Source of the DNA: a virus
Virus record (IMG/VR): IMGVR_UViG_3300034283_001962
Location: 32,001 to 96,000 of that record
DNA length: 64,000 nucleotides
Strand: one strand, 5' to 3'
Below, piece after piece: positions 4,315 to 33,500 of this stretch. Positions within the stretch are counted from its first letter, which is position 1. The number at the start of each line of letters is the position of its first letter. Under the pieces are notes generated by a model, which was given only the letters and a program-made list of their open reading frames with translations, ran no database searches and was not told the DNA's origin. The translations under genes and the position numbers were made by a program.

Positions 4315-4621
4315 TATACATTTGTAAGCTTTTAATAAAATTTAATATATTTTCAGAAGGGTTTTCAATTTTTTGAATCTCTAGTAACTTCTTTTCTTTT
4401 TTACGAATATCTATCTTTAGCTTTCGAACAGAAAATCTAAATACTCCAAACCCAGATAATTCTACAGTGGTACAAGAGTTAAATGCTTTAGTTGCATCTT
4501 TAAATATAAAGTTTATAACTTTATCTATTTCTATAGGTTTAATATCTAACTTAGAAGATAATCTATTAATTAATACTTCCTGAAGTTTATCTTTAGATAT
4601 AAGGTTATTTTCTAGATTCAT
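4271..4621 (-). CDS. HU/IHF-like DNA-binding protein
   Basis: VELSGFGVF motif and helical N-terminus typical of HU/IHF. Confidence 0.7.
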   Translation of the reverse strand: MNLENNLISKDKLQEVLINRLSSKLDIKPIEIDKVINFIFKDATKAFNSCTTVELSGFGVFRFSVRKLKIDIRKKEKKLLEIQKIENPSENILNFIKSLQMYIENAKTKINELEKN

Positions 4622-4625
4622 TTAA

Positions 4626-4976
4626 TTATAATTTTTTAATTAAACTTATATCTAAAGATATATCTCTATTTATAAAATCTAGGTTGATTTGGTGAACTAT
4701 TCTATATTTACCTTGAAATTTTTCTAATAAACCTATTTCTTTTAATTCAGATATCATATTATTGACAGAGTTAACTGAACTGTTATATTTAACAGAGAAG
4801 TCATTTTTGGCTGACAAAGAAGATATCGTACCTCTAATAGCCGTAAAAGCTAATAATTGAAGTTGTTTATTTGTTACTTTAATATTATTAACTAAACAGA
4901 TTATAGAATAATACTTTAGAGCTATATCTAAAGCTGATTCTTCTTGTTTTTTGATTTTTTGTACGATTAAAGTCAT
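4626..4976 (-). CDS. Winged-helix-like hypothetical protein
   Basis: SVNSVNNMISELKEIGLL...YRI pattern. Confidence 0.45.
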   Translation of the reverse strand: MTLIVQKIKKQEESALDIALKYYSIICLVNNIKVTNKQLQLLAFTAIRGTISSLSAKNDFSVKYNSSVNSVNNMISELKEIGLLEKFQGKYRIVHQINLDFINRDISLDISLIKKL

Positions 4977-5061
4977 CGTTCCTAATGTAATTAATTATGC
5001 AAAGATAGTGAAATTATAATATAAAGATATAGTTATATAATAACTTAATGCTATATTAAAC

Positions 5062-5090
5062 AAAAAAATCCTCCCTTTTGAGGAGGATTT
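5062..5090 (-). terminator. Intrinsic terminator closing tRNA operon 1
   Basis: AAATCCTCC/GGAGGATTT hairpin followed by a T-run on the minus strand. Confidence 0.75.
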
Positions 5091-5092
5091 AG

Positions 5093-5166
5093 AACACCTA
5101 GAAAGACTCGAACTTTCACTCTTTTGATCCGTAGTCAAAAGCTTTATCCAATTAAGCTATAGGTGC
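5093..5166 (-). tRNA. tRNA-Arg(ACG)
   Basis: Cloverleaf; anticodon arm TTTGA-CTACGGA-TCAAA. Confidence 0.9.
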
Positions 5167-5169
5167 AGA

Positions 5170-5243
5170 TGGGTGGAATTGGGATTCGAACCCAATCAAG
5201 TGATTCACAGTCACCCGTCAGAATCCAGTCTGAACGATTCCAC
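5170..5243 (-). tRNA. tRNA-His(GTG)
   Basis: Anticodon arm GGTGA-CTGTGAA-TCACT; G-1 and CCA encoded. Confidence 0.88.
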
Positions 5244-5245
5244 AG

Positions 5246-5317
5246 TTCCCTTATCTAGGCTCGAACTAGAACTACCAGAGTCAAAATCTGATGTGTTAAC
5301 CATTACACTATAAGGGA
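5246..5317 (-). tRNA. tRNA-Gln(TTG)
   Basis: Anticodon arm TCAGA-TTTTGAC-TCTGG. Confidence 0.9.
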
Positions 5318-5334
5318 ATAGCATACCATAAAAA

Positions 5335-5408
5335 TGGCACAGGTAGAGAGATTCGAACTCCCAACAGCAGTTTTGGAGACTGACATGATACCATTTCACC
5401 ATACCTGT
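5335..5408 (-). tRNA. tRNA-Trp(CCA)
   Basis: Anticodon loop CTCCAAA; CCA end encoded. Confidence 0.9.
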
Positions 5409-5413
5409 TTCTG

Positions 5414-5485
5414 TGGTAAGAAAGGGTAACGATCCCTTCTCCAAGGTTTTTCAGACCTTTGCTAATCCATCTCAGCTATCTTACC
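5414..5485 (-). tRNA. tRNA-Phe(GAA)
   Basis: Anticodon arm AAGGT-CTGAAAA-ACCTT; atypical T-loop ATCGTTA. Confidence 0.85.
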
Positions 5486-5494
5486 GTAATTTAA

Positions 5495-5568
5495 AGCATG
5501 TTGTACAAATTCTTCGTTTTCACATTGCAGGTGAATTAAGCCTATGTGTGCTGGCTGCGTAACATGTT
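5495..5568 (-). ncRNA. Putative small structured RNA with a Cys-type anticodon hairpin
   Basis: Terminal stem ACATGTT/AACATG, GCAGCCA motif, internal TTCAC-CTGCAAT-GTGAA hairpin; resembles units of the 26973-27398 array. Confidence 0.45.
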
Positions 5569-5598
5569 AAAAGCACTAACCAGATTCGAACTGGTGTG

Positions 5599-5668
5599 AA
5601 TCCAGTATGAGAATCGAACTCATTTCAATAGTTTTGCAGACTATTTGGCTTCCATAACCTCACTGGAT
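5599..5668 (-). tRNA. tRNA-Cys(GCA)
   Basis: Anticodon arm ATAGT-CTGCAAA-ACTAT. Confidence 0.85.
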
Positions 5669-5669
5669 A

Positions 5670-5772
5670 ATTTATACCAATTAAAATCTTTTGCCGTTTT
5701 TCTTCTATGACAATTTGCGCATCTTACATCACATTTTTCAATTTCATTTTTTACCTGATTTAAATCGGTCAT
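5670..5772 (-). pseudogene. HNH endonuclease C-terminal remnant
   Basis: Translates to MTDLNQVKNEIEKCDVRCANCHRRKTAKDFNWYK. Confidence 0.7.
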
Positions 5773-5783
5773 AGTGCTATTTG

Positions 5784-5855
5784 ATCCTCGTAAGGTACTC
5801 GAAACCTTTTCCCCAGTTTACAAGACTGGTGCATCACCATATATGCTTACAAGGA
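5784..5855 (-). tRNA. tRNA-Thr(TGT)
   Basis: Anticodon arm CCAGT-CTTGTAA-ACTGG. Confidence 0.88.
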
Positions 5856-5860
5856 ATATG

Positions 5861-5935
5861 TCGAGTAAACAGGAGTCGAACCTGCATGATGTCTTCACCC
5901 CAAATGAAGAGGCTTACCAGTTAGCCCATTACTCG
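5861..5935 (-). tRNA. tRNA-Pro(TGG)
   Basis: Anticodon arm CTTCA-TTTGGGG-TGAAG. Confidence 0.88.
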
Positions 5936-5947
5936 ATGCTATAAAAT

Positions 5948-5976
5948 AAAAAACCCCCGATTTTATGTCGGAGGGT
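5948..5976 (-). terminator. Attenuator terminator upstream of tRNA operon 1
   Basis: ACCCTCCGA-cataaaa-TCGGGGGT-TTTTT; its 5' arm can alternatively pair with GAGGGTGAA (6040-6048). Confidence 0.85.
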
Positions 5977-6012
5977 GAATAGACTTTTTTTAGTCCGTTA
6001 TGCACGAATAGT

Positions 6013-6105
6013 CTAATTTTTTATGACACATGTACATAGTTCACCCTCTCCACAGATACACTGCGGGGTAAAAGTAAACCACGTATGACGTACTATCTTT
6101 TTCAT
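6013..6105 (-). CDS. Leader peptide 1, MKKIVRHTWFTFTPQCICGEGELCTCVIKN
   Basis: 30-codon ORF between a promoter and a terminator; the sensor block matches the downstream tRNAs. Confidence 0.85.
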   Translation of the reverse strand: MKKIVRHTWFTFTPQCICGEGELCTCVIKN

Positions 6106-6109
6106 AACA

Positions 6110-6141
6110 CAAACATATGAAGAAATTCTGAAACTTCCAAA
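6110..6141 (-). promoter_or_regulatory. Bacteroidota primary-sigma promoter (TTTG-N20-TATGTTTG)
   Basis: Matches the TTTG-N19-21-TAnnTTTG consensus. Confidence 0.8.
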
Positions 6142-6154
6142 TTTATTTTTTTTG

Positions 6155-6225
6155 TTGGATAGGAGAGAATCGAACTCTCTTGCCTACGTTTTACAGACGT
6201 TGCTGGTTGCCCTGACCTCTACCCA
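6155..6225 (-). tRNA. tRNA-Tyr(GTA), short variable arm
   Basis: Anticodon arm ACGT-CTGTAAA-ACGT. Confidence 0.8.
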
Positions 6226-6230
6226 ATATG

Positions 6231-6319
6231 CGGAGAAAGTGAGACTCGAACTCACACTAGAGTTTTATCCCTAGAACAGTTTAGCAAACTGCTGCAGTAC
6301 CATTATGACTTATTCCTCC
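6231..6319 (-). tRNA. tRNA-Ser(GCT)
   Basis: Anticodon arm GCAGT-TTGCTAA-ACTGT; long variable arm. Confidence 0.9.
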
Positions 6320-6324
6320 AAATG

Positions 6325-6408
6325 CGGTGGTAACAGGAATCGAACCTGTATGGCTGTTACACCTTCAACGTTTTCAAGACGCATAAGCCCTCTCTATTGC
6401 GTACCACC
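6325..6408 (-). tRNA. tRNA-Ser(TGA)
   Basis: Anticodon loop CTTGAAA; long variable arm. Confidence 0.85.
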
Positions 6409-6413
6409 AATTG

Positions 6414-6487
6414 TAGCTCTGATGAGATTCGAACTCACACAAAACAGATTTTAAGTCTGCCGCCGTTACCAATTAGACCACAGAGCT
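6414..6487 (-). tRNA. tRNA-Leu(TAA), short variable arm
   Basis: Anticodon arm GCAGA-CTTAAAA-TCTGT. Confidence 0.87.
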
Positions 6488-6490
6488 ATG

Positions 6491-6566
6491 TACCCCTAGC
6501 GAGATTCGAACTCGCAAAACTCCTGATTCTAAGTCAGGCGACTTTACCTAATTTGCCCATAGAGGT
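6491..6566 (-). tRNA. tRNA-Leu(TAG), short variable arm
   Basis: Anticodon arm CCTGA-CTTAGAA-TCAGG. Confidence 0.87.
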
Positions 6567-6574
6567 ATATAAAT

Positions 6575-6604
6575 AAAAAAACCTAGCTCTTTTAGGAACT
6601 AGGC
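6575..6604 (-). terminator. Attenuator terminator upstream of tRNA operon 2
   Basis: GCCTAGTTC-ctaaaa-GAGCTAGGT-TTTTTT; 5' arm alternatively pairs with GGGAACAGG (6645-6653). Confidence 0.85.
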
Positions 6605-6629
6605 TTTAAGAAGTAGGTTAGAAAAAACC

Positions 6630-6707
6630 TTACTGTATATAATCCCTGTTCCCTTGATGAATCAAGAGCGATAAACTGGAATAATATGACAGTAATAGAT
6701 TTCTCAT
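6630..6707 (-). CDS. Leader peptide 2, MRNLLLSYYSSLSLLIHQGNRDYIQ
   Basis: 25-codon ORF with 12 consecutive Leu/Ser/Tyr codons ahead of the Leu/Ser/Tyr tRNAs. Confidence 0.85.
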   Translation of the reverse strand: MRNLLLSYYSSLSLLIHQGNRDYIQ

Positions 6708-6711
6708 TGGA

Positions 6712-7092
6712 TTATCCTTCTACAGAAGTTTCAGGTTCAGTTGGTTCTTCAACTGGATCTACTGGGGGTTCTACTACATCAGTAATAGTACCTTTAAGGT
6801 CAGCAATAGCTAGATCTAATTTATCAGCTACAGCTTGAATTTCTTGTGAAGTTACTGAACTAGCTAATTGAGCTTGAAGATCAGCTACTACAGCTTCAAG
6901 ATCAGTAATTACTTTTGCAATTTGTGCTTGTTCAGCATCAAGAGACAATTGAAGTTCATCTACTTTTGCTGAAAGTTCTTGAATAGTTGCCATTGTTTGT
7001 TTATTTTGTGATTGTATTAAAAATATTTTTTTTACTAAATATACAAGAAATCCTATTGTTAGACTTTGTAAGATTATTATAAATAATAGCAT
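6712..7092 (-). CDS. Coiled-coil protein with a possible N-terminal membrane anchor and acidic Pro-rich tail
   Basis: 126 aa; hydrophobic N-terminus; heptad pattern. Confidence 0.65.
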   Translation of the reverse strand: MLLFIIILQSLTIGFLVYLVKKIFLIQSQNKQTMATIQELSAKVDELQLSLDAEQAQIAKVITDLEAVVADLQAQLASSVTSQEIQAVADKLDLAIADLKGTITDVVEPPVDPVEEPTEPETSVEG

Positions 7093-7110
7093 AGTATATC
7101 TTTTCTACCA

Positions 7111-7142
7111 CAAATATAAACTTATAATTTGAAACTACCAAA
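7111..7142 (-). promoter_or_regulatory. Bacteroidota promoter (TTTG-N20-TATATTTG)
   Basis: Consensus match; drives the 126-aa ORF, leader 2 and tRNA operon 2. Confidence 0.8.
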
Positions 7143-7155
7143 TTAATTTAATATG

Positions 7156-7228
7156 TACTCCTTATTAGACTTGAACTAATAACTTCTTCCATGTAAGGGA
7201 AGCACTCTACCAATTGAGTTAAAGGAGC
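7156..7228 (-). tRNA. tRNA-Val(TAC)
   Basis: Anticodon arm CTTCC-CTTACAT-GGAAG. Confidence 0.9.
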
Positions 7229-7233
7229 AAAAG

Positions 7234-7307
7234 TGGAAGTCATGGGTATCGAACCCATCTCAGTTTGCTTGCAAAGCAATCTCGCCAGCCAAGGAACATG
7301 CACCCCC
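7234..7307 (-). tRNA. tRNA-Ala(TGC)
   Basis: Anticodon loop TTTGCAA; G-rich acceptor with a G.U pair; atypical D-arm. Confidence 0.8.
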
Positions 7308-7313
7308 AAAAAA

Positions 7314-7460
7314 TCAGGACTTTACGCCCTGATTAGTTAACTTAAAATAATCTGCTGCAGAAATCCGGTCTCGTACAAAAAGAGAAATAGGATTTGTACG
7401 AGCTGCAGCTTTTCTTTTCTTTTTGCCAAACTTACGTTGGCTTTTTACTTTCTGTGCCAT
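7314..7460 (-). CDS. Small basic protein MAQKVKSQRKFGKKKRKAAARTNPISLFVRDRISAADYFKLTNQGVKS
   Basis: 48-codon ORF inside the tRNA cluster, ending in a hairpin/T-run. Confidence 0.5.
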   Translation of the reverse strand: MAQKVKSQRKFGKKKRKAAARTNPISLFVRDRISAADYFKLTNQGVKS

Positions 7461-7536
7461 GTGAATACTTGGCTACTGTTTTGTCAGTAGTTACCGTATT
7501 CGGCTCATAGAATTCTTCATATTCATATTATTTAAG

Positions 7537-7609
7537 TTGGCATACTCAGACTCGAACTGAGGACTTCTGCAGTATCAGTGCAGTACTCTAACCACTGAGT
7601 TATACGCCA
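7537..7609 (-). tRNA. tRNA-Ile(GAT)
   Basis: Anticodon arm CTGCA-CTGATAC-TGCAG. Confidence 0.9.
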
Positions 7610-7614
7610 GTATG

Positions 7615-7689
7615 TTGACTCTATCGGATTCGAACCGATGACCTTAACGTTATGAGCGTTCTGCTACTAACCAACTGAGCTAAGAGTCA
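7615..7689 (-). tRNA. tRNA(CAT), probably Ile2 (lysidine) or elongator Met
   Basis: Anticodon loop CTCATAA. Confidence 0.85.
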
Positions 7690-7694
7690 AGAAG

Positions 7695-7767
7695 CCGAGA
7701 GTGGGAGGTTCGAACTCCGACCTTCACATCGACAGTGTGACATGCTCGCCATTACACTACACCCTCG
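7695..7767 (-). tRNA. tRNA-Asp(GTC)
   Basis: Anticodon arm TCACA-CTGTCGA-TGTGA. Confidence 0.88.
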
Positions 7768-7780
7768 TTTAAATTTATTG

Positions 7781-7853
7781 TACTCTCAACGGGGATTGAA
7801 CCCGTATTGACAGATTGAAAGTCTGTTATCCTGACCAATTAGATGATGAGAGC
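7781..7853 (-). tRNA. tRNA-Glu(TTC)
   Basis: Anticodon arm ACAGA-CTTTCAA-TCTGT. Confidence 0.9.
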
Positions 7854-7900
7854 AAAGCTCTTCACCCTCTTTTAGTGAATTTCTCATAATACTATTTTTG

Positions 7901-7974
7901 TGCAGTAAACAAGACTCGAACTTGCAACTTCCACCTTGGCAAGGTGGCACTCTAACCAATTGAGCTATTACTGC
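7901..7974 (-). tRNA. tRNA-Gly(GCC)
   Basis: Anticodon arm CCACC-TTGCCAA-GGTGG. Confidence 0.9.
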
Positions 7975-7975
7975 G

Positions 7976-8049
7976 TGGAGCAGGTAACCGGGATCGAACC
8001 GACATCAGAAGATTGGAAATCTCCTGCACTACCATTGTGCTATACCTGC
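7976..8049 (-). tRNA. tRNA-Gly(TCC)
   Basis: Anticodon arm GGAGA-TTTCCAA-TCTTC; CCA encoded. Confidence 0.9.
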
Positions 8050-8165
8050 ATTTCAGTTTTTCATGAGCCTTGTAGAACTGTAACTACCGCCGGACCTACT
8101 TTCTAGAATTTCCTCCGAACCCCTTTGCACCAGATTTTATATCTGGTGTGGTGCTACTGTTATCT

Positions 8166-8693
8166 TTAACCTACTTTCCTCAGTAATTCACTAAGTCTAA
8201 GTTCTGTGTAATCTTCTAATGGGATGACACTTAAAGCTTTCTTTCTGATAATGTGATCAGCTGCTTTTGTAGCTATCATTTGTCCACTTTTAAAGATCGG
8301 GACTTGGTTGATTCCTTTAGTCCATCCTTTAAAATCTTGTACCAGTTTTGATGACAGGGTTTTTTTGACATCTGCGAAATCAAACTCAAGCCCTTCAATA
8401 GAGATTGGTATCTCTCTACTGATAAGTTCTGATGTTTCGATTGTCTTAACCCCTTCTTCATATAATCTCAGGTACTCTGTTTTGTACCTTTTTTTCTCAT
8501 CATAATTGAATATATAATGAGCACCTCTTAAACCGTAACGGAAAACTACTACTGTAACAAACTTGGTAAGCTTGTAGTCCTGGGAGTCCGTACCTATCCT
8601 AATAGTCAAGTTGTTGTGTTCATTGACTTGTTCTAGAATATGATCTACCAGATTTACTATAGTACCATCCTCTTTTCTGAAGTACTTTTCCAT
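8166..8693 (-). CDS. RNase H-like YkuK/DUF458-family protein (likely start MEKYF at 8693)
   Basis: IGTDSQ...RLYEE...ATKAADH motifs; the annotated upstream start overlaps tRNA-Met. Confidence 0.75.
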   Translation of the reverse strand: MEKYFRKEDGTIVNLVDHILEQVNEHNNLTIRIGTDSQDYKLTKFVTVVVFRYGLRGAHYIFNYDEKKRYKTEYLRLYEEGVKTIETSELISREIPISIEGLEFDFADVKKTLSSKLVQDFKGWTKGINQVPIFKSGQMIATKAADHIIRKKALSVIPLEDYTELRLSELLRKVG

Positions 8694-8706
8694 AACGGTT
8701 TTGTTG

Positions 8707-8780
8707 ATGCAGGGGTGGGCCGACGATCCCACGTATTTCTAGGTTATGAGCCTAGCGAGTCACCTCTACTCTACCCTGCA
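8707..8780 (-). tRNA. tRNA-Met(CAT), possibly initiator-like; atypical T-loop
   Basis: Anticodon arm CTAGG-CTCATAA-CCTAG. Confidence 0.8.
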
Positions 8781-8790
8781 GTTTATAATG

Positions 8791-8862
8791 CGTTCCCACC
8801 AAGACTCGAACTTGGATCAAATGATTAACAGTCACCCGTACTAGCCTTTGTACTATAGGAAC
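8791..8862 (-). tRNA. tRNA-Asn(GTT)
   Basis: Anticodon arm GGTGA-CTGTTAA-TCATT. Confidence 0.9.
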
Positions 8863-8870
8863 ATTTAGTT

Positions 8871-8940
8871 GTAGCCCCAACAAGGATCGAACTCAGCAAT
8901 TGTTTTTTAAATTATAATGTAGTTTTCTATGACAATTACT
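8871..8940 (-). pseudogene. tRNA 3' fragment plus HNH remnant (CSNCHRKLHYN)
   Basis: Isolated GTTCGATCC T-arm half; CxNCH motif on the minus strand. Confidence 0.5.
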
Positions 8941-8941
8941 G

Positions 8942-9013
8942 CAGGGTTACGCAGAATCGAACTGCGACTGAAAGATTAGAAGTCTCTCGTTCTATCCATT
9001 AAACTATAACCCC
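8942..9013 (-). tRNA. tRNA-Arg(TCT)
   Basis: Anticodon arm AGAGA-CTTCTAA-TCTTT. Confidence 0.9.
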
Positions 9014-9071
9014 ATTATATTTAAATTCTCAATAACCTTTGTAAATACAACACATTATTTAATTAAACAAG

Positions 9072-9144
9072 TTCCCCCGCTGAGATTCGAACTCAGCCCC
9101 ATAGGTTAAAAGCCTATTGCCTACTACCAGTTTGCTACAGGGGA
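9072..9144 (-). tRNA. tRNA-Lys(TTT)
   Basis: Anticodon arm ATAGG-CTTTTAA-CCTAT. Confidence 0.9.
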
Positions 9145-9148
9145 TTAT

Positions 9149-9189
9149 AAAAACGAAAAACCCCTGTACCGTTTTACTGGCTCAGGGGT
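9149..9189 (-). terminator. Attenuator terminator upstream of tRNA operon 3
   Basis: ACCCCTG...CAGGGGT-TTTTCGTTTTT; 5' arm GACCCCTGAGCC alternatively pairs with GGCTCAGTGGGTC (9238-9250). Confidence 0.85.
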
Positions 9190-9220
9190 CTTAAAATTGC
9201 TATGTTAAAATTAACTTTTC

Positions 9221-9310
9221 TTAAGTTATAGCAAAAGGACCCACTGAGCCGAACTTCTCATTCGCTCTCCCGATATTATCTACTATAATATATGATGGTC
9301 TTGTTTGCAC
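9221..9310 (-). CDS. Leader peptide 3 (GTG start), MQTRPSYIIVDNIGRANEKFGSVGPFAIT
   Basis: 29-codon ORF; the block IIVDNIGRANEK matches the downstream tRNA set. Confidence 0.82.
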   Translation of the reverse strand: MQTRPSYIIVDNIGRANEKFGSVGPFAIT

Positions 9311-9327
9311 TTTAAAATTTTGAATCA

Positions 9328-9359
9328 CAATATTAAGAAATCTTTTTGATACTACCAAA
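9328..9359 (-). promoter_or_regulatory. Bacteroidota promoter (TTTG-N20-TAATATTG)
   Basis: One mismatch to TAnnTTTG; shares the TTTGGTAGT upstream box with the other promoters. Confidence 0.7.
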
Positions 9360-9363
9360 TTTT

Positions 9364-9828
9364 TTATTTTATTTCTTTTTCTGGTTCTGTTTTAAGCTGA
9401 TTTATATGAAAAATTTGTTCATAAACTGAGTCTGATCGCAATTTTGATAATTTTTTTACATGTTCATTAATCTTTTCTTTAAACATTTTCCTATTCCAAA
9501 TACACCAATATGTTTGAGCATCTCCTTTTATGTATATTTCAGTAAGATCAAATCCAAATTGTTCAATATCTTGAGCTTCTCTACCAGGTGTGTACCATTC
9601 TCCATAACCTATTATTGATTCATGAGGAAAAGAAACCATTCCTACTACTCTATCTATATCTTCGTCATCTTCTTCCTCATCATTAACTAAACCTAATTCT
9701 CTAAGTTTATTCTTACTTGCATCTTTCTTTTTACTAATAGATATTAATACTGGAAACTCAAATAGGTTATCTGTAAAATTAATATCAGGTTCGACAAGTA
9801 TTCCTTGTGGAGTTTTAGTTATGGACAT
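9364..9828 (-). CDS. Hypothetical protein
   Basis: 154-aa ORF. Confidence 0.6.
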   Translation of the reverse strand: MSITKTPQGILVEPDINFTDNLFEFPVLISISKKKDASKNKLRELGLVNDEEEDDEDIDRVVGMVSFPHESIIGYGEWYTPGREAQDIEQFGFDLTEIYIKGDAQTYWCIWNRKMFKEKINEHVKKLSKLRSDSVYEQIFHINQLKTEPEKEIK

Positions 9829-10414
9829 ATAAAACTTTTGGTATTTTAATTATATTTTCTTGTGGAAACTTTATTTTAAACTCCTCTACATATTCTCCAT
9901 CTGCTGCATAACTTGTATTTAATACAATCTGTTGAGCCAGATCATTTCTAGTCGCAAATGCTCCCATATCAATCTGATTAAATCCAGGTGAACATTTAAA
10001 GTAACTGTAATCATAATGACTATGTACCATATCCCAATAGATCATTCCTGGCTGTGTATAACTATTAATTGTTTTTTCAAATTCACTTACAAATGTAGGT
10101 ACATAGTAATTATCATCCCCACTCATAATTACATACTTTCCTCTACATTGTTGTTTACCTAATTCTCTAGGTGTATGTCCCCAATCATTATATCGCTTAT
10201 CCAAGTAAAGTACACGTATCCTTTTATCTATACCTTTTACTATATCAAAAAGCATACCTCTAAACTGATCTGAATAATCCAATCCATCCACTACCACCAG
10301 TGCTTCCCAATTCTCATTTGTCTGACATAATAAAGCACATAAAGTACTGCGTAATTCATTTATCCTATTATAAGTAGGTAACACAAAGCTTACCAATGGC
10401 TGATTATTTATCAT
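9815..10414 (-). CDS. GT2-family glycosyltransferase
   Basis: VSFVLPTYNR, VVVDG and GDDNY motifs. Confidence 0.85.
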   Translation of the reverse strand: MINNQPLVSFVLPTYNRINELRSTLCALLCQTNENWEALVVVDGLDYSDQFRGMLFDIVKGIDKRIRVLYLDKRYNDWGHTPRELGKQQCRGKYVIMSGDDNYYVPTFVSEFEKTINSYTQPGMIYWDMVHSHYDYSYFKCSPGFNQIDMGAFATRNDLAQQIVLNTSYAADGEYVEEFKIKFPQENIIKIPKVLYVHN

Positions 10415-10883
10415 AGTTCAGTCTTTTTACGATAAATAGTAACTTCTCTATAGTCATTAGTAACATTTGCAGGTGGTACATTTCTCAACATAAAACTAAT
10501 CTTCTTAATTCCCAATGTTTTACTAATAACCCTGTTGGCATCTGATACTTGCATCATATACTTACGTAAGTTCAGAAAGTCCACATCTTTATATGTAACT
10601 TCTCTTAAAGCAGGAGTATTGTCCAGTTTTCTAATAAGAGCCTGATACACCTTTTTACCTTGTTCTCTTGTACCTAAATTATTCATCTTAATGGAATTGA
10701 GGCGTTAAGTATAACTTCAACAGCATGACACATTTCTTCTCTTTTTGTTTCTATTGAAATATTAGAAATATATCCAGTTACTATTACATGTGTATTTTTA
10801 TTTTGGTAATCCTCTACGGCTTTCTTAATCAAAGATTCAAGTATCGCAAGATCATCTTTAGCTTCCCCAACTGTTACTGTCAT
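10411..10883 (-). CDS. Two small hypothetical proteins (10411-10686, 10683-10883)
   Basis: Coupled ORFs. Confidence 0.55.
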
Positions 10884-30573: not shown

Positions 30574-33500
30574 ATGAAAACAGCAATGCAGGAACTGATA
30601 GAATTATTGGAAGACTTTAAAGGTGAACTAAAAGATACGTACGATGGTAACCCTTGGATAACCCGTGGAGTACTTATCTCTATTGCCGAGGCTAAGAAAC
30701 TATTGCGTAAAGAACGCGAACAGATCGAGAAGGCGTTTTTTGATGGGGACGAAGACGGAAGATCGGAATATTATAAAAAATTTGTAGGCTCACAAGATTA
30801 CTACAATAAAACATACAGCTAATGAACAACTTACAAACCAAACTCAAAGAATTAGAAGCCTGTGATGGCCCTGATGGTGCTATTGAATGGGCCAAAGACT
30901 ACGACACCCTTCAAGATGCTTGGGATAATTGCCAAAGAGGGGATTGGATGATTTGGCTCATTGATAAGATGGGCTGGAGCAATGATAAGGATCTAAGACT
31001 GATGTCTGTTGCGTTTGCAAGGCAAGTGCAGCATCTCATGAAAGATCAGAGGTCAATCAATGCCCTTGATGTTGCGGAAAGATACGCAAATGGGGAGGCT
31101 ACTGTTGACGAATTACGGGAGGCAAGGGCGGCAGCAAGGGCGGCAGATACGGCATGGGCGGCAGCATGGGCGGCAGATGCGGCAGATGCGGCAGAGGCGG
31201 CAGCAGATGCGGCAGGGGGGGCAGTAAGGGCTGATCAGGCTAATATAATTAGACAGTATTTGCCAACGGTAACATTCTAAAACATACAGCCAATGAACAC
31301 TGAAAAAATAAAAGCAGCACGATCTGCCTATACCGCAGGAATTAATTACGCAGCTGCCAATTTACTAAAATTTGATAAATACGGGTGGGAGTGGGGAGGT
31401 CGGTGGACCAACTTCAAGGATATGCCACACTTCCAGAAAACATTCGGCAAGACAACAAAAACAGCAAAGATGAAACTAAAACAAATCGACTTTAACGCGG
31501 AACTAATCGGCAAGGATGGCATCGTAGTGAAAACAATGGATGGCATAGAAGTCAAGCAGCTTACTTTTTTTAAGTGCGATGTTTCCTACAAAGTTGTAGG
31601 AACTATGGATGGAGTGCTACAAACTTGGAATAGTATTGGAAATTATATTTTTTCAATTACTTCGGATGGTAATTGTGTAATTGCCAGACACTCCACATTA
31701 AACCTAATAATGTACAAAGAAGTCAAGGTTATGACGGTGGACGAGTTTTATCAACGTTATTATAGTACAATAGGTGCTTACGACTTCGCCCACAAACTTG
31801 CCGCTGCTGTAAAGGCTGGGGAGGTGGAGTAAGATCATAATATGAAACATTAAGGCGGGAAAATATCTTTGAAATAGTTTGCATAATCAAAATAAGGTTG
31901 TATATTTGTAAGACAAAAGCAAACAAAATGACACTAACCGAAAAAATCAACAGCAATCCTTACTTAAAAGTAAGCAACTGCACAGACATTGCAGACCTTG
32001 AAGCAGCAATGGATGACCTTAGAAAACTTGATGCAGAGTTTGGAGATGACAACAAAACGCTATTAAAACTTTGGGCAAAGTTCTTAGGTAAAAAGAAAAA
32101 ACTTGAATTATGGAAGCGGAAATAAAAGTTAGGAAACCAAGCAAGCTAAGAATATTGGCAAAGAAAATACTGGGGAATTACGCCCTGTATTATACAAAAG
32201 AATTTGAGTGGCAAATGAAGTTGCCGAAAAATGGTGATCAAATAAAAATAACATGGTTTCCGGACAACAGAGGAGCAACAAACGCTTATATTGGGATGTC
32301 TGGAGTAGTTGAAAATATGAATATTAACGATGGTCATTTTATATTGAATTGTGGAAATTGTATACTTATTTGTAGTGGCGATTTTAATTACATTAGATTA
32401 TGAAACAGGGCGGCAAACGTGAGGGGGCAGGCAGACCAAAGAAACATGGTGAACCAACCACTACAATCGCTTTCCGCTGCCCTGTATCTAAAGTTGATGA
32501 ATTGAAAAAAATAATTAACACAAAACTGGCCAAGTGGGCAATAAAAAAATGAACAGACAACAAAAAATTGCAGAGCTGAAAGCTCAGATAGCTGAACTTG
32601 AAAAGATCACACCGGAAGAAAGGTTTTTAGAGTTGATCGACGGCATGACCGTGAAAATTGACAAAGACAATTACCCGAATTCGACTTTCTTTTTTAAGGG
32701 TGATACGTGTTATTTAGAACTTGAAAAATCAAGATTATGGGTTAGATATGCTGAAATCTGGCAGGTTTTTAAAGTTGAATTTGGGATGCAGTATGATGAA
32801 ATCCAGTCGTTTATAAAAGATCAGATGGAACAACACTTCAAAATGATGGGGGGAGTAACACCCGACCGAATGACATGGACGGATCAAATGTGATGGAACA
32901 ACACTTCAAAATGATGGGGGGAGTAACACCTGAAGTAATAAACTGGGTAGTAGCTTTGCTGGTGGAACAACACTTTAAAAAATGAACAAATGGCCTTTTT
33001 ACAAAGCGATTGGTAGGACTTGGAAATTCGAAGCTGCTAAATATTACAACCGGGGTAAACTTATGCGTAAAATTAAAACTGAAAAGACATGGAAAAGAAA
33101 CTGACAGCGGTAGAGTGGTTTTTAAATGAACTACAAAGGATGCAATACTTTATTGGCAATGATATGTTACAAGCCTATAACCAAGCCATCGCAATGGAGA
33201 AGGAGCAGCACGAAAAAACAGCTTTACATTTTTCAGAAAAGGTACTTGACCACATTCAAGATGATAAAGGGTGGGAAGGCGGAGATTTTGAGTTTAAAAA
33301 TTACTACAATAAAACCTACGGCAAATGACAAAAGAATCTATTGTTGAGTTACAAAAAATAGACTGTAACTGCAATGACTGTATCCATATGAACAGAGATA
33401 TTGCTAAGTATGAATCTTTTAACTCTCTGTATAGGGGGACTAACCCATCACACCGGGTACTTTATGGACACTGTTCTCTAAAAAATATACAAGTGTCTTT

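Follow-up and report, generated by a model that had tools for sequence, protein, structure and literature searches.

A putative leader-peptide attenuator ahead of a block of twelve phage tRNA genes

Enterobacterial leader peptides include the multivalent thrL (Thr and Ile) and ilvL of ilvGMEDA (Ile, Leu and Val) as well as trpL, hisL, leuL and pheL. The multivalent thr/ilv leaders and pheM-pheST appear to be the closest known designs to a locus found in a 64,000-nucleotide stretch of viral DNA (the window; positions 32,001 to 96,000 of IMG/VR record IMGVR_UViG_3300034283_001962). In the window, a block of 12 transfer RNA (tRNA) genes, cassette 3, is preceded on the minus strand by a leader at 9359-9146 that is referred to here as attenuator 3. 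From its sequence and from folding models, attenuator 3 is probably a leader-peptide transcription attenuator that gates the block of phage tRNA genes. The structural elements of leader-peptide attenuators are all present: a promoter-proximal short open reading frame (ORF), regulatory codons that lie clustered in it, an intrinsic terminator and a mutually exclusive antiterminator. Phage tRNA genes are usually viewed as constitutive codon-usage helpers or as spares against tRNA-cleaving defences. In the literature searched by full text, no published leader-peptide control of tRNA genes was found.

The record is a virus genome of 118,407 bp with 32% G+C, and whole-genome counts use its six frames. 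The phage proteins encoded in the window include a DNA polymerase and a large terminase of the crAss type, and every tRNA gene is on the minus strand, from 9144 to 5092, upstream of the terminase gene. Three cassettes, each with its own leader, make up this tRNA region. The leaders of the window (W1-3) were compared with those of the cultured Leptolyngbya phage Lbo-JY46 (J1-3; PP438436.1), which was found by a terminase search (large terminase 37% identical, tRNA block syntenic), those of an IMG/VR relative (V1-3; G002, with loci L087 and L143), which was found by a promoter-motif scan, and one leader from contig L091 (X1).

Codon content of the leaders and their tRNA blocks

The leader ORF opens GTG CAA ACA AGA CCA TCA TAT and then passes through 12 codons, the sensor run IIVDNIGRANEK, which covers nine of the ten amino acids served by cassette 3. 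An internal Met codon is missing from the run, as the original prediction correctly stated. Its main claim, that the sensor codons match the downstream tRNAs, also holds: the letters were confirmed on the minus strand, and under strict wobble the anticodons of cassette 3 read 12/12 codons of the run vs 0/12 for those of cassettes 1 and 2. In this count the ATA codon is taken as read only if the second CAT tRNA of the block (CAT-2, 7614-7689) is a tRNA-Ile2 carrying lysidine. That identity, which had been proposed earlier, is likely: the positional ortholog of CAT-2 in the IMG/VR relative, which is 72% identical to it, carries a TAT anticodon, and the Ile-GAT tRNAs resemble the CAT-2 group more than the other CAT tRNAs do. 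CAT-2 is 63-72% identical to the Ile-GAT tRNAs and 51-58% identical to the other CAT tRNAs; the TAT ortholog is 47-56% identical to the latter. ATA accounts for 748 of the 2162 Ile codons in long ORFs.

Runs of at least 12 residues drawn only from K, R, N, M, G, E, D, I, A and V occur 47 times in the genome, so length alone does not set the sensor run apart from chance. It is the sole run among these 47 with at least nine residue types, and it is located within 211 nucleotides (nt) ahead of its own cassette on the correct strand. The two sister leaders are stronger than leader 3 in run statistics. The run of sister leader 2, LLLSYYSSLSLL, is the longest L/S/Y run genome-wide in any frame, and that of sister leader 1, RHTWFTFTPQC, is the only run of at least 11 residues in the genome that holds all eight residues of cassette 1.

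All three units of promoter, ORF, terminator and tRNA genes recur in Lbo-JY46 and in the IMG/VR relative, with diverged leaders that spell the amino acids of their own block, and the window shares the gene order of cassette 3 with both. In Lbo-JY46, every cassette follows a promoter of the same type, a short ORF that starts with ATG, and a terminator. The cassette-3 run of this phage is the only one of six runs of at least 17 residues to include at least ten types, and no comparable run in that genome is longer than the one of cassette 1. Across the eight W, J and V leaders other than W3, the own cassette reads 10/12, 9/11, 15/17, 2/9, 10/11, 11/14, 8/10 and 11/13 codons. The leader codons covary with the tRNA content, as seen for Cys, and with the isoacceptor. 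The window has tRNA-Cys in cassette 1, with Cys in the leader 1 run and none in the leader 3 run; both relatives have tRNA-Cys in cassette 3, with Cys in the cassette-3 run and none in the cassette-1 run. Arg is encoded by AGA in 3/3 cassette-3 runs, with Arg-TCT downstream, and by CGT in 3/3 cassette-1 runs, with Arg-ACG downstream; the V1 run closes with one extra AGG.

A separate lineage was identified by scoring 143 contiguous tRNA blocks, in all collected loci, by the longest upstream run of the block's own amino acids. The best match was an unrelated IMG/VR contig of 205,558 bp (L091; 5150-6400, minus strand). Its run of 17 residues consists of exactly the six amino acids of its block, and the leader has its own antiterminator and terminator, with ACTGGGT in the ORF complementary to ACCCAGT in the terminator arm. 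V1, W2 and V2 ranked next, all others having E values of at least 0.05. This block scan detected no matched run in crAss001 and the other collected tRNA arrays.

The promoter, which was read from the letters, is of a TTTGGTAG...TTTG type that is also present at 7142 and 6141, ahead of the other two cassettes, and, in both relatives, ahead of each of their three cassettes. A strict regular expression for it matches four copies genome-wide, all on the minus strand. We take this promoter to be of the Bacteroidota type (-33/-7). The GTG lies 17 nt past the -7 box and occupies the place where the relatives carry ATG, the ATG of the Lbo-JY46 homologue being 18 nt past its box. The leader ORF has no Shine-Dalgarno motif, which is normal here because the long ORFs of this phage carry the motif only at the background rate (5/68 against 6.6%). 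Their upstream regions are 47% A, and such Shine-Dalgarno-poor, A-rich regions are presumably the Bacteroidota style of initiation. This presumed Bacteroidota-like promoter and initiation type fits oddly with the cyanobacterial host that is recorded for Lbo-JY46.

Terminator, antiterminator and the predicted RNA switch

The predicted antiterminator of 12 bp with one bulge was recovered as a duplex of segment 2 with segment 3 (9250-9238 with 9190-9179; Table 1). Its RNAduplex energy of -24.5 kcal/mol was matched by 0/2000 dinucleotide shuffles of the whole ORF. The test compares the best duplex of the whole ORF with the terminator 5' arm against 2000 such shuffles per leader, and the real duplex was reached in 0 shuffles for W3, 94 for W2, 0 for W1, 17 for J3, 57 for J2, 5 for J1, 7 for V3, 26 for V2, 14 for V1 and 160 for X1. 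Fisher's combination over the ten leaders is 4e-13, with the homologous triplets being non-independent. For V3, where the pairing begins inside the run, a test restricted to the part of the ORF past the run gave 1171/2000. In 10/10 leaders, the start of the strongest complement to the terminator 5' arm falls between -5 and +8 nt relative to the run end.

The terminator GACCCCTGAGCC/GGTACAGGGGT has an energy of -19.3 kcal/mol, ends 2-5 nt ahead of tRNA-Lys and is conserved in sequence in Lbo-JY46. Terminators differ in sequence among the leaders, and every leader has its own complement; a 6x6 cross-matrix of ORF bodies against terminator arms is not cleanly diagonal. In the IMG/VR relative, the antiterminator pairs GGCTCTTGTGGGT with ACCCCTCAAGAGCC. 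Segments 2, 3 and 4 have changed jointly, with GGCTCAG/CTGAGCC/CAGGGG in the window vs GGCTCTTG/CAAGAGCC/TGAGGGG in the IMG/VR relative; this covariation of the cassette-3 leaders was compared by hand, the MAFFT alignment of the three leaders being poor in the hairpins.

The influence of ribosome position was modelled with partition functions in which a ribosome masks 23-31 nt, using three transcript 5' ends and three footprints (nine settings). The model is thermodynamic and excludes kinetics and RNA polymerase pausing. For W3, the probability of the terminator was 0.90-0.93 in free RNA and 0.43-0.95 with the ribosomal aminoacyl (A) site on codons 2-5. It fell to 0.00-0.35 over run codons 1-10, with 0.28-0.58 at single codons under the widest footprint. 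At run codon 11 the value ranged from 0.00 to 1.00 and was set by the choice of footprint, at run codon 12 it was 0.73-1.00, and at all later codons and the stop it was 1.00. Taken together, most codons other than run codons 1-10 had values of 0.6-1.0, and under some settings values of 0.26-0.52 occurred at codon 5 and at run codon 10 or 11. W1 behaved as W3 did, with a full switch at equilibrium. In nascent RNA, with the 3' arm not yet made, the 5' arm was sequestered at 0.88-1.00 when the ribosome was in the run. It was freed just past the run in W2, J1, J2, V2, V3 and X1; J3 and V1 had no clear pattern. The attenuator reading of the original prediction is supported by the architecture shared with two related phages and one unrelated phage, the codon covariation, the placement of the complement in 10/10 leaders and the ribosome-mask folding.

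The terminator 5' arm and loop, CCCCTGAGCCAGTAAAACGGTA (9190-9165, minus strand), resemble the 5' part of tRNA-Lys, CCCCTGTAGCAAACTGGTA (9143-9120, minus strand), and the terminator 3' arm is able to pair with the 5' strand of the tRNA-Lys acceptor. From this resemblance, the terminator may be derived from a partial duplication of tRNA-Lys.

At E<=10, no Rfam leader family (Thr_leader, Phe_leader, His_leader, Trp_leader or Leu_leader) was matched in 9149-9359. The long hairpin had no Rfam match, and its reading as a tRNA-like element or as a known RNA was dropped. A T-box was likewise dropped: 4500-10500 has no T-box match at E<=10, and the locus has an ORF and no specifier-loop architecture. 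The terminator regions of Lbo-JY46 (L020 7063-7127, 7788-7848 and 11305-11365, minus strand) have sub-threshold Rfam matches to Thr_leader and Phe_leader (23-25 bits vs a gathering score of 55), which probably reflect only a hairpin and T tract.

Table 1. Features of the attenuator 3 locus, the sister leaders and the corresponding units of related and unrelated phages (window coordinates unless a locus is named)
Feature	Position	Strand	Details
154-amino-acid ORF	ends 9364	-	upstream gene; no other terminator before 9170
Promoter	9328-9359	-	-33 TTTG (9359-9356), 20-nt spacer, -7 box TAATATTG (9335-9328); read from letters
Leader ORF	9221-9310	-	GTG (9310-9308), 29 codons and TAA (9223-9221); peptide VQTRPSYIIVDNIGRANEKFGSVGPFAIT
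Sensor run (putative)	9254-9289	-	12 codons, ATT ATA GTA GAT AAT ATC GGG AGA GCG AAT GAG AAG = IIVDNIGRANEK
Segment 2 (antiterminator 5' strand)	9238-9250	-	GGCTCAGTGGGTC; within ORF, begins 3 nt past run
Segment 3	9179-9190	-	GACCCCTGAGCC; shared by antiterminator (with 9250-9238) and terminator (with 9170-9160)
Segment 4 and T tract	9146-9170	-	terminator 3' arm GGTACAGGGGT (9170-9160), then TTTTTCGTTTTT
tRNA-Lys	9144-9071	-	first of 12 tRNAs
Block (cassette 3), putatively regulated	7155-9144	-	Lys-TTT, Arg-TCT, Asn-GTT, Met-CAT (8706-8780), Gly-TCC, Gly-GCC, Glu-TTC, Asp-GTC, CAT-2 (7614-7689), Ile-GAT, Ala-TGC (~7233-7303), Val-TAC
175-amino-acid ORF	8166-8693	-	inserted in block
48-amino-acid ORF	7314-7460	-	inserted in block; very basic, MAQKVKSQRKFGKKKRK...
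Terminator-like hairpin	7308-7335	-	-13.5 kcal/mol with flanks, then six T; just before tRNA-Ala
Sister attenuator 2 (candidate)	6575-6707	-	leader MRNLLLSYYSSLSLLIHQGNRDYIQ, terminator 6607-6578; ahead of Leu, Leu, Ser, Ser, Tyr
Sister attenuator 1 (candidate)	5948-6141	-	leader MKKIVRHTWFTFTPQCICGEGELCTCVIKN, terminator 5974-5954; ahead of Pro, Thr, Cys, Phe, Trp, Gln, His, Arg-ACG
Lbo-JY46 cassette 3			Lys, Cys, "Cys-ACA", Arg-TCT, Asn, Met, Gly, Glu, Asp, CAT, Ile, Ala
Lbo-JY46 cassette 2			Leu, Leu, Ser-TGA
Lbo-JY46 cassette 1			Pro, Thr, Phe, Gln, His, Arg-ACG, Trp
Lbo-JY46 tRNAs added here	L020 11229-11299, 8871-8943, 7540-7627, 6605-6675, ~6600-6680		
Lbo-JY46 leader 3 (J3)			MINS + run IDIRNIDIVCAEGVNKC + SCGLSFMCDGGCGCN
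Lbo-JY46 leader 2 (J2)			MKNFNT + run YYSLSLSLS + QPTQELYLCAY
Lbo-JY46 leader 1 (J1)			MKI + run TRQHTQFWFPT + GTGLGML
IMG/VR relative, tRNA order			K C V R N M G E D I(TAT) I(GAT) A / L L S S Y / P T F Q H R W
IMG/VR relative, leader 3 (V3)			MNSRT + run VIDNIRNAEGCKKA + LVGNVCFYDGGCGCN
IMG/VR relative, leader 2 (V2)			MKNFNT + run YYSLSLLSSL + TGRELKVWV
IMG/VR relative, leader 1 (V1)			MNV + run TRTHTQQFWFPTR + AGLGMCDNRG
L091 leader (X1)		-	M + run KTQTTYQTQYQPKGGKP + FRSTGCVMFSDLTTI; ahead of Pro, Lys, Lys, Pro, Gly, Gln, Tyr, Thr

Proposed mechanism and its alternatives

In the proposed mechanism, the promoter would start a transcript that has a short A/U-rich leader followed by the 90-nt ORF of 29 codons. 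A fast-decoding ribosome would run over segment 2, leaving segment 3 to pair with segment 4 and form the terminator, and transcription would end ~5 nt ahead of tRNA-Lys. Slow decoding of run codons 1-10 would instead keep the ribosome on the run, open the pairing of segment 2 with this region and leave segment 2 free. The 12-bp antiterminator could then form between segments 2 and 3, and RNA polymerase would read into the tRNA genes. Since the tRNA output is what the sensor would measure, through the decoding speed of their codons, each cassette would constitute a negative-feedback, supply-on-demand loop. We infer translation from the GTG, the start point, termination and read-through, and the type of signal, which may be tRNA abundance, charging or damage. 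A broader proposal, which we consider possible and rather doubtful, is that the three attenuators form an array of decoding-speed sensors that are read cassette by cassette, so that replacement tRNAs are made as needed and then shut off. The shortfalls could come from a mismatch between the host tRNA pool and the AT-rich genome or from host tRNA-cleaving defence enzymes, and a run of many different codons would work as an OR gate that takes in every tRNA of its block.

Several observations weigh against control of the block by attenuator 3 in this way. Within the leader ORF, 10/29 codons fall outside the amino acids of cassette 3, and the start is GTG only here, the other nine leaders having ATG. 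The terminator-like hairpin between Ile and Ala makes control of Ala and Val by attenuator 3 a candidate only. In Lbo-JY46, the cassette-2 leader fits badly (2/9 codons), with Tyr and AGT codons and no Tyr or Ser-GCT tRNA. The W, J and V leaders are homologues, and their agreement therefore does not amount to three independent cases. The attenuator 3 leader was missed under the strict contiguous-block rule; W3, W1 and J1 score poorly in the block scan because their cassettes are interrupted by ORFs or because tRNAs were overlooked by ARAGORN at default settings.

The folding model contributes further points of this kind. For W3, the predicted drop in termination extends to the two codons ahead of the run, codons 6-7 (Ser and Tyr), where the terminator probability was 0.26-0.52 in most cells and, at codon 6 with the shortest footprint (-12..+11), 0.87-0.93. 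At equilibrium, the terminator persists wherever the ribosome sits in W2, J1-3, V2, V1 and X1 (lowest values 0.79-0.96), and the minimum for V3 is only 0.73; for the leaders that do not switch at equilibrium, the switch appears only in the nascent-RNA model. The trp terminator hairpin is likewise more stable than its antiterminator. Free W3 RNA with ends 9330-9140 adopts the antiterminator fold (minimum free energy -44.4), and the no-ribosome state is model-dependent because transcript ends other than those used above fold the free RNA in this way.

The equilibrium result, by which the terminator is largely or wholly formed in 8/10 leaders regardless of the ribosome, would suit an explanation in which the ORF is translated and senses the run and the output is Rho-type polarity, nuclease access or processing by ribonuclease P or E instead of terminator choice. 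Pairing of the terminator 3' arm with the tRNA-Lys 5' acceptor strand, by which processing could be affected, points the same way. We consider this explanation unlikely, as a complement to the terminator 5' arm stands right past the run in 10/10 leaders, which is explained only by an antiterminator role, the switch of W3 and W1 is complete at equilibrium too, and a T tract lies behind every hairpin. It is also conceivable that terminator choice operates as proposed and that the signal is amino-acid starvation, sensed as uncharged tRNA, with the tRNA genes raised as a starvation response. A stalled ribosome cannot distinguish a missing tRNA from an uncharged one, and classical attenuators respond to charging. 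The codon choice, however, tracks isoacceptors (AGA vs CGT) and not amino acids alone, and the regulated genes fit tRNA supply better because extra tRNA does not relieve an amino-acid shortage, which renders a starvation signal very unlikely.

Two explanations that dispense with a sensor altogether were also weighed. If the hairpins were the terminator or 3' structure of the upstream 154-amino-acid gene, the small ORF would be untranslated and its match to the tRNAs would be due to chance. No further terminator lies between the end of that gene at 9364 and position 9170, the small ORF starts with GTG, and a 12-residue run from a set of ten residues is not rare by length (47 in the genome). Against these stand a cassette-type promoter between the 154-amino-acid gene and the ORF, the diversity of the run (unique, 1/47), its 12/12 own-cassette codons vs 0/12 for the others, and the matched ORFs at the same place in nine other leaders of four phages, where Cys covaries; a chance match is accordingly judged highly improbable. 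Least probable of all is that the ORF encodes a functional micropeptide, the composition of which is selected for the peptide itself. The C-terminal DGGCGCN is conserved between the Lbo-JY46 and IMG/VR leaders, and a hand count over the last eight sense codons of these two leaders gave three synonymous changes and one non-synonymous change. The C-terminus of the window peptide is nevertheless unrelated, and the three leader families share no motif, only the match to their own tRNAs. The 29-residue peptide had no family match, no search aimed at it having been made.

Neighbouring features and relation to known leaders

The existence of a block of 12 tRNA genes, as originally predicted, holds for 11 of them, which ARAGORN calls at default settings in 9144-7155. 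The twelfth, Ala-TGC, needs a relaxed ARAGORN threshold to be called and lacks an Rfam tRNA match; its acceptor stem, read from the letters, has G3:U70. The terminator-like hairpin that had been flagged ahead of Ala and Val exists as described, with the energy and T tract given in Table 1. It overlaps the stop of the 48-amino-acid ORF, which ends inside the 3' arm of the hairpin. Translation of this ORF would melt the hairpin. Lbo-JY46 has neither the 48-amino-acid ORF nor the hairpin, and its Ile and Ala genes are 42 nt apart.

In each of the three phages, cassette 3 keeps an ORF of 160-175 amino acids, either internally or at its end (window 8166-8693; L020 7987-8466; L143 ~2510-2990). The ORF belongs to PHROG 11311, a family without an assigned function, and is noted in the Lbo-JY46 record as KVP40 Orf299-like. 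Between tRNA-Arg and tRNA-Asn, the window has an apparent 3' tRNA half at 8866-8905 (minus strand), comprising a T arm and an acceptor strand ...GGCTACA. By its sequence, this half may be a relic of the Val and Cys tRNAs that are found in cassette 3 of the relatives. For Lbo-JY46, the tRNAs Lys-TTT, Glu-TTC, Ser-TGA, Arg-ACG and Trp-CCA are absent from its record and were added here (positions in Table 1, in the same order). The Lbo-JY46 tRNA that is annotated, and called by ARAGORN, as Cys-ACA (L020 11073-11146, PP438436.1 123072-123145) has A73, its loop also reads CC-TAC-AA, and its ortholog in the IMG/VR relative is Val-TAC; it is more likely a tRNA-Val (Val-TAC).

Other searches extended to the surroundings of the locus. 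The 154- and 175-amino-acid ORFs and an alignment (A1), used as queries, retrieved no related loci among IMG/VR or JGI (Joint Genome Institute) contigs, and a protein search with the flanking genes gave three homologues (P0002-P0004), all on short contigs. In IMG/VR, the terminase has its nearest relative in L002 (59% identity), where a syntenic tRNA block is absent, and a terminator-based pattern scan of IMG/VR produced a single match, which was GC-rich and unrelated. Promoter-motif scans gave many loci with the same promoter type; among the matches listed, only the IMG/VR relative shares the tRNA order. Lake-water metagenome runs contain the same DNA as the window. Four low-coverage contigs from DNA runs that cover the attenuator 3 leader are identical to the window, and attenuator 3 therefore has no population variation among them. 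A G>A change (plus strand) at window position 6090 was seen in one contig (depth 3.6) of another lake run; it turns a CGT (Arg) of sister leader 1 into TGT (Cys), a residue still in the cassette 1 set.

If correct, the proposed mechanism would be the first attenuator class with tRNA as its output and a minimal closed feedback loop in translation, and it would give a handle on when and why phages need their own tRNAs. Compact, composable sensors of tRNA supply would thereby be offered to synthetic biology. The idea is testable at the bench because the cultured phage Lbo-JY46 carries all three units.

Among the known systems, the T-box (RF00230) is alike in that the choice between terminator and antiterminator depends on tRNA status upstream of translation-related genes. 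It differs from attenuator 3 in that the tRNA is bound directly by a specifier codon and translation is not needed. The pheM leader of pheST in E. coli is closer in that a component of the decoding apparatus is controlled by leader attenuation in response to the supply of charged tRNA; the signal of pheM, however, is a single amino acid, its target is protein-coding and the gene belongs to the host. The thrL/ilvL class shares with attenuator 3 a promoter-proximal ORF of 15-35 codons, a regulatory codon cluster and the sensing of several amino acids per leader. In both, the terminator lies directly before the first regulated gene, the antiterminator shares the terminator 5' arm and the position of the ribosome would decide the fold. 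The targets of the thrL/ilvL class are biosynthetic enzymes and one to three amino acids are repeated in the leader, whereas the targets of attenuator 3 would be tRNAs, with nine amino acids represented once or twice. Attenuator 3 is further distinguished from this class by codons that track isoacceptors, by a product that would act back on the sensor, and by its residence in a phage with Shine-Dalgarno-poor genes.

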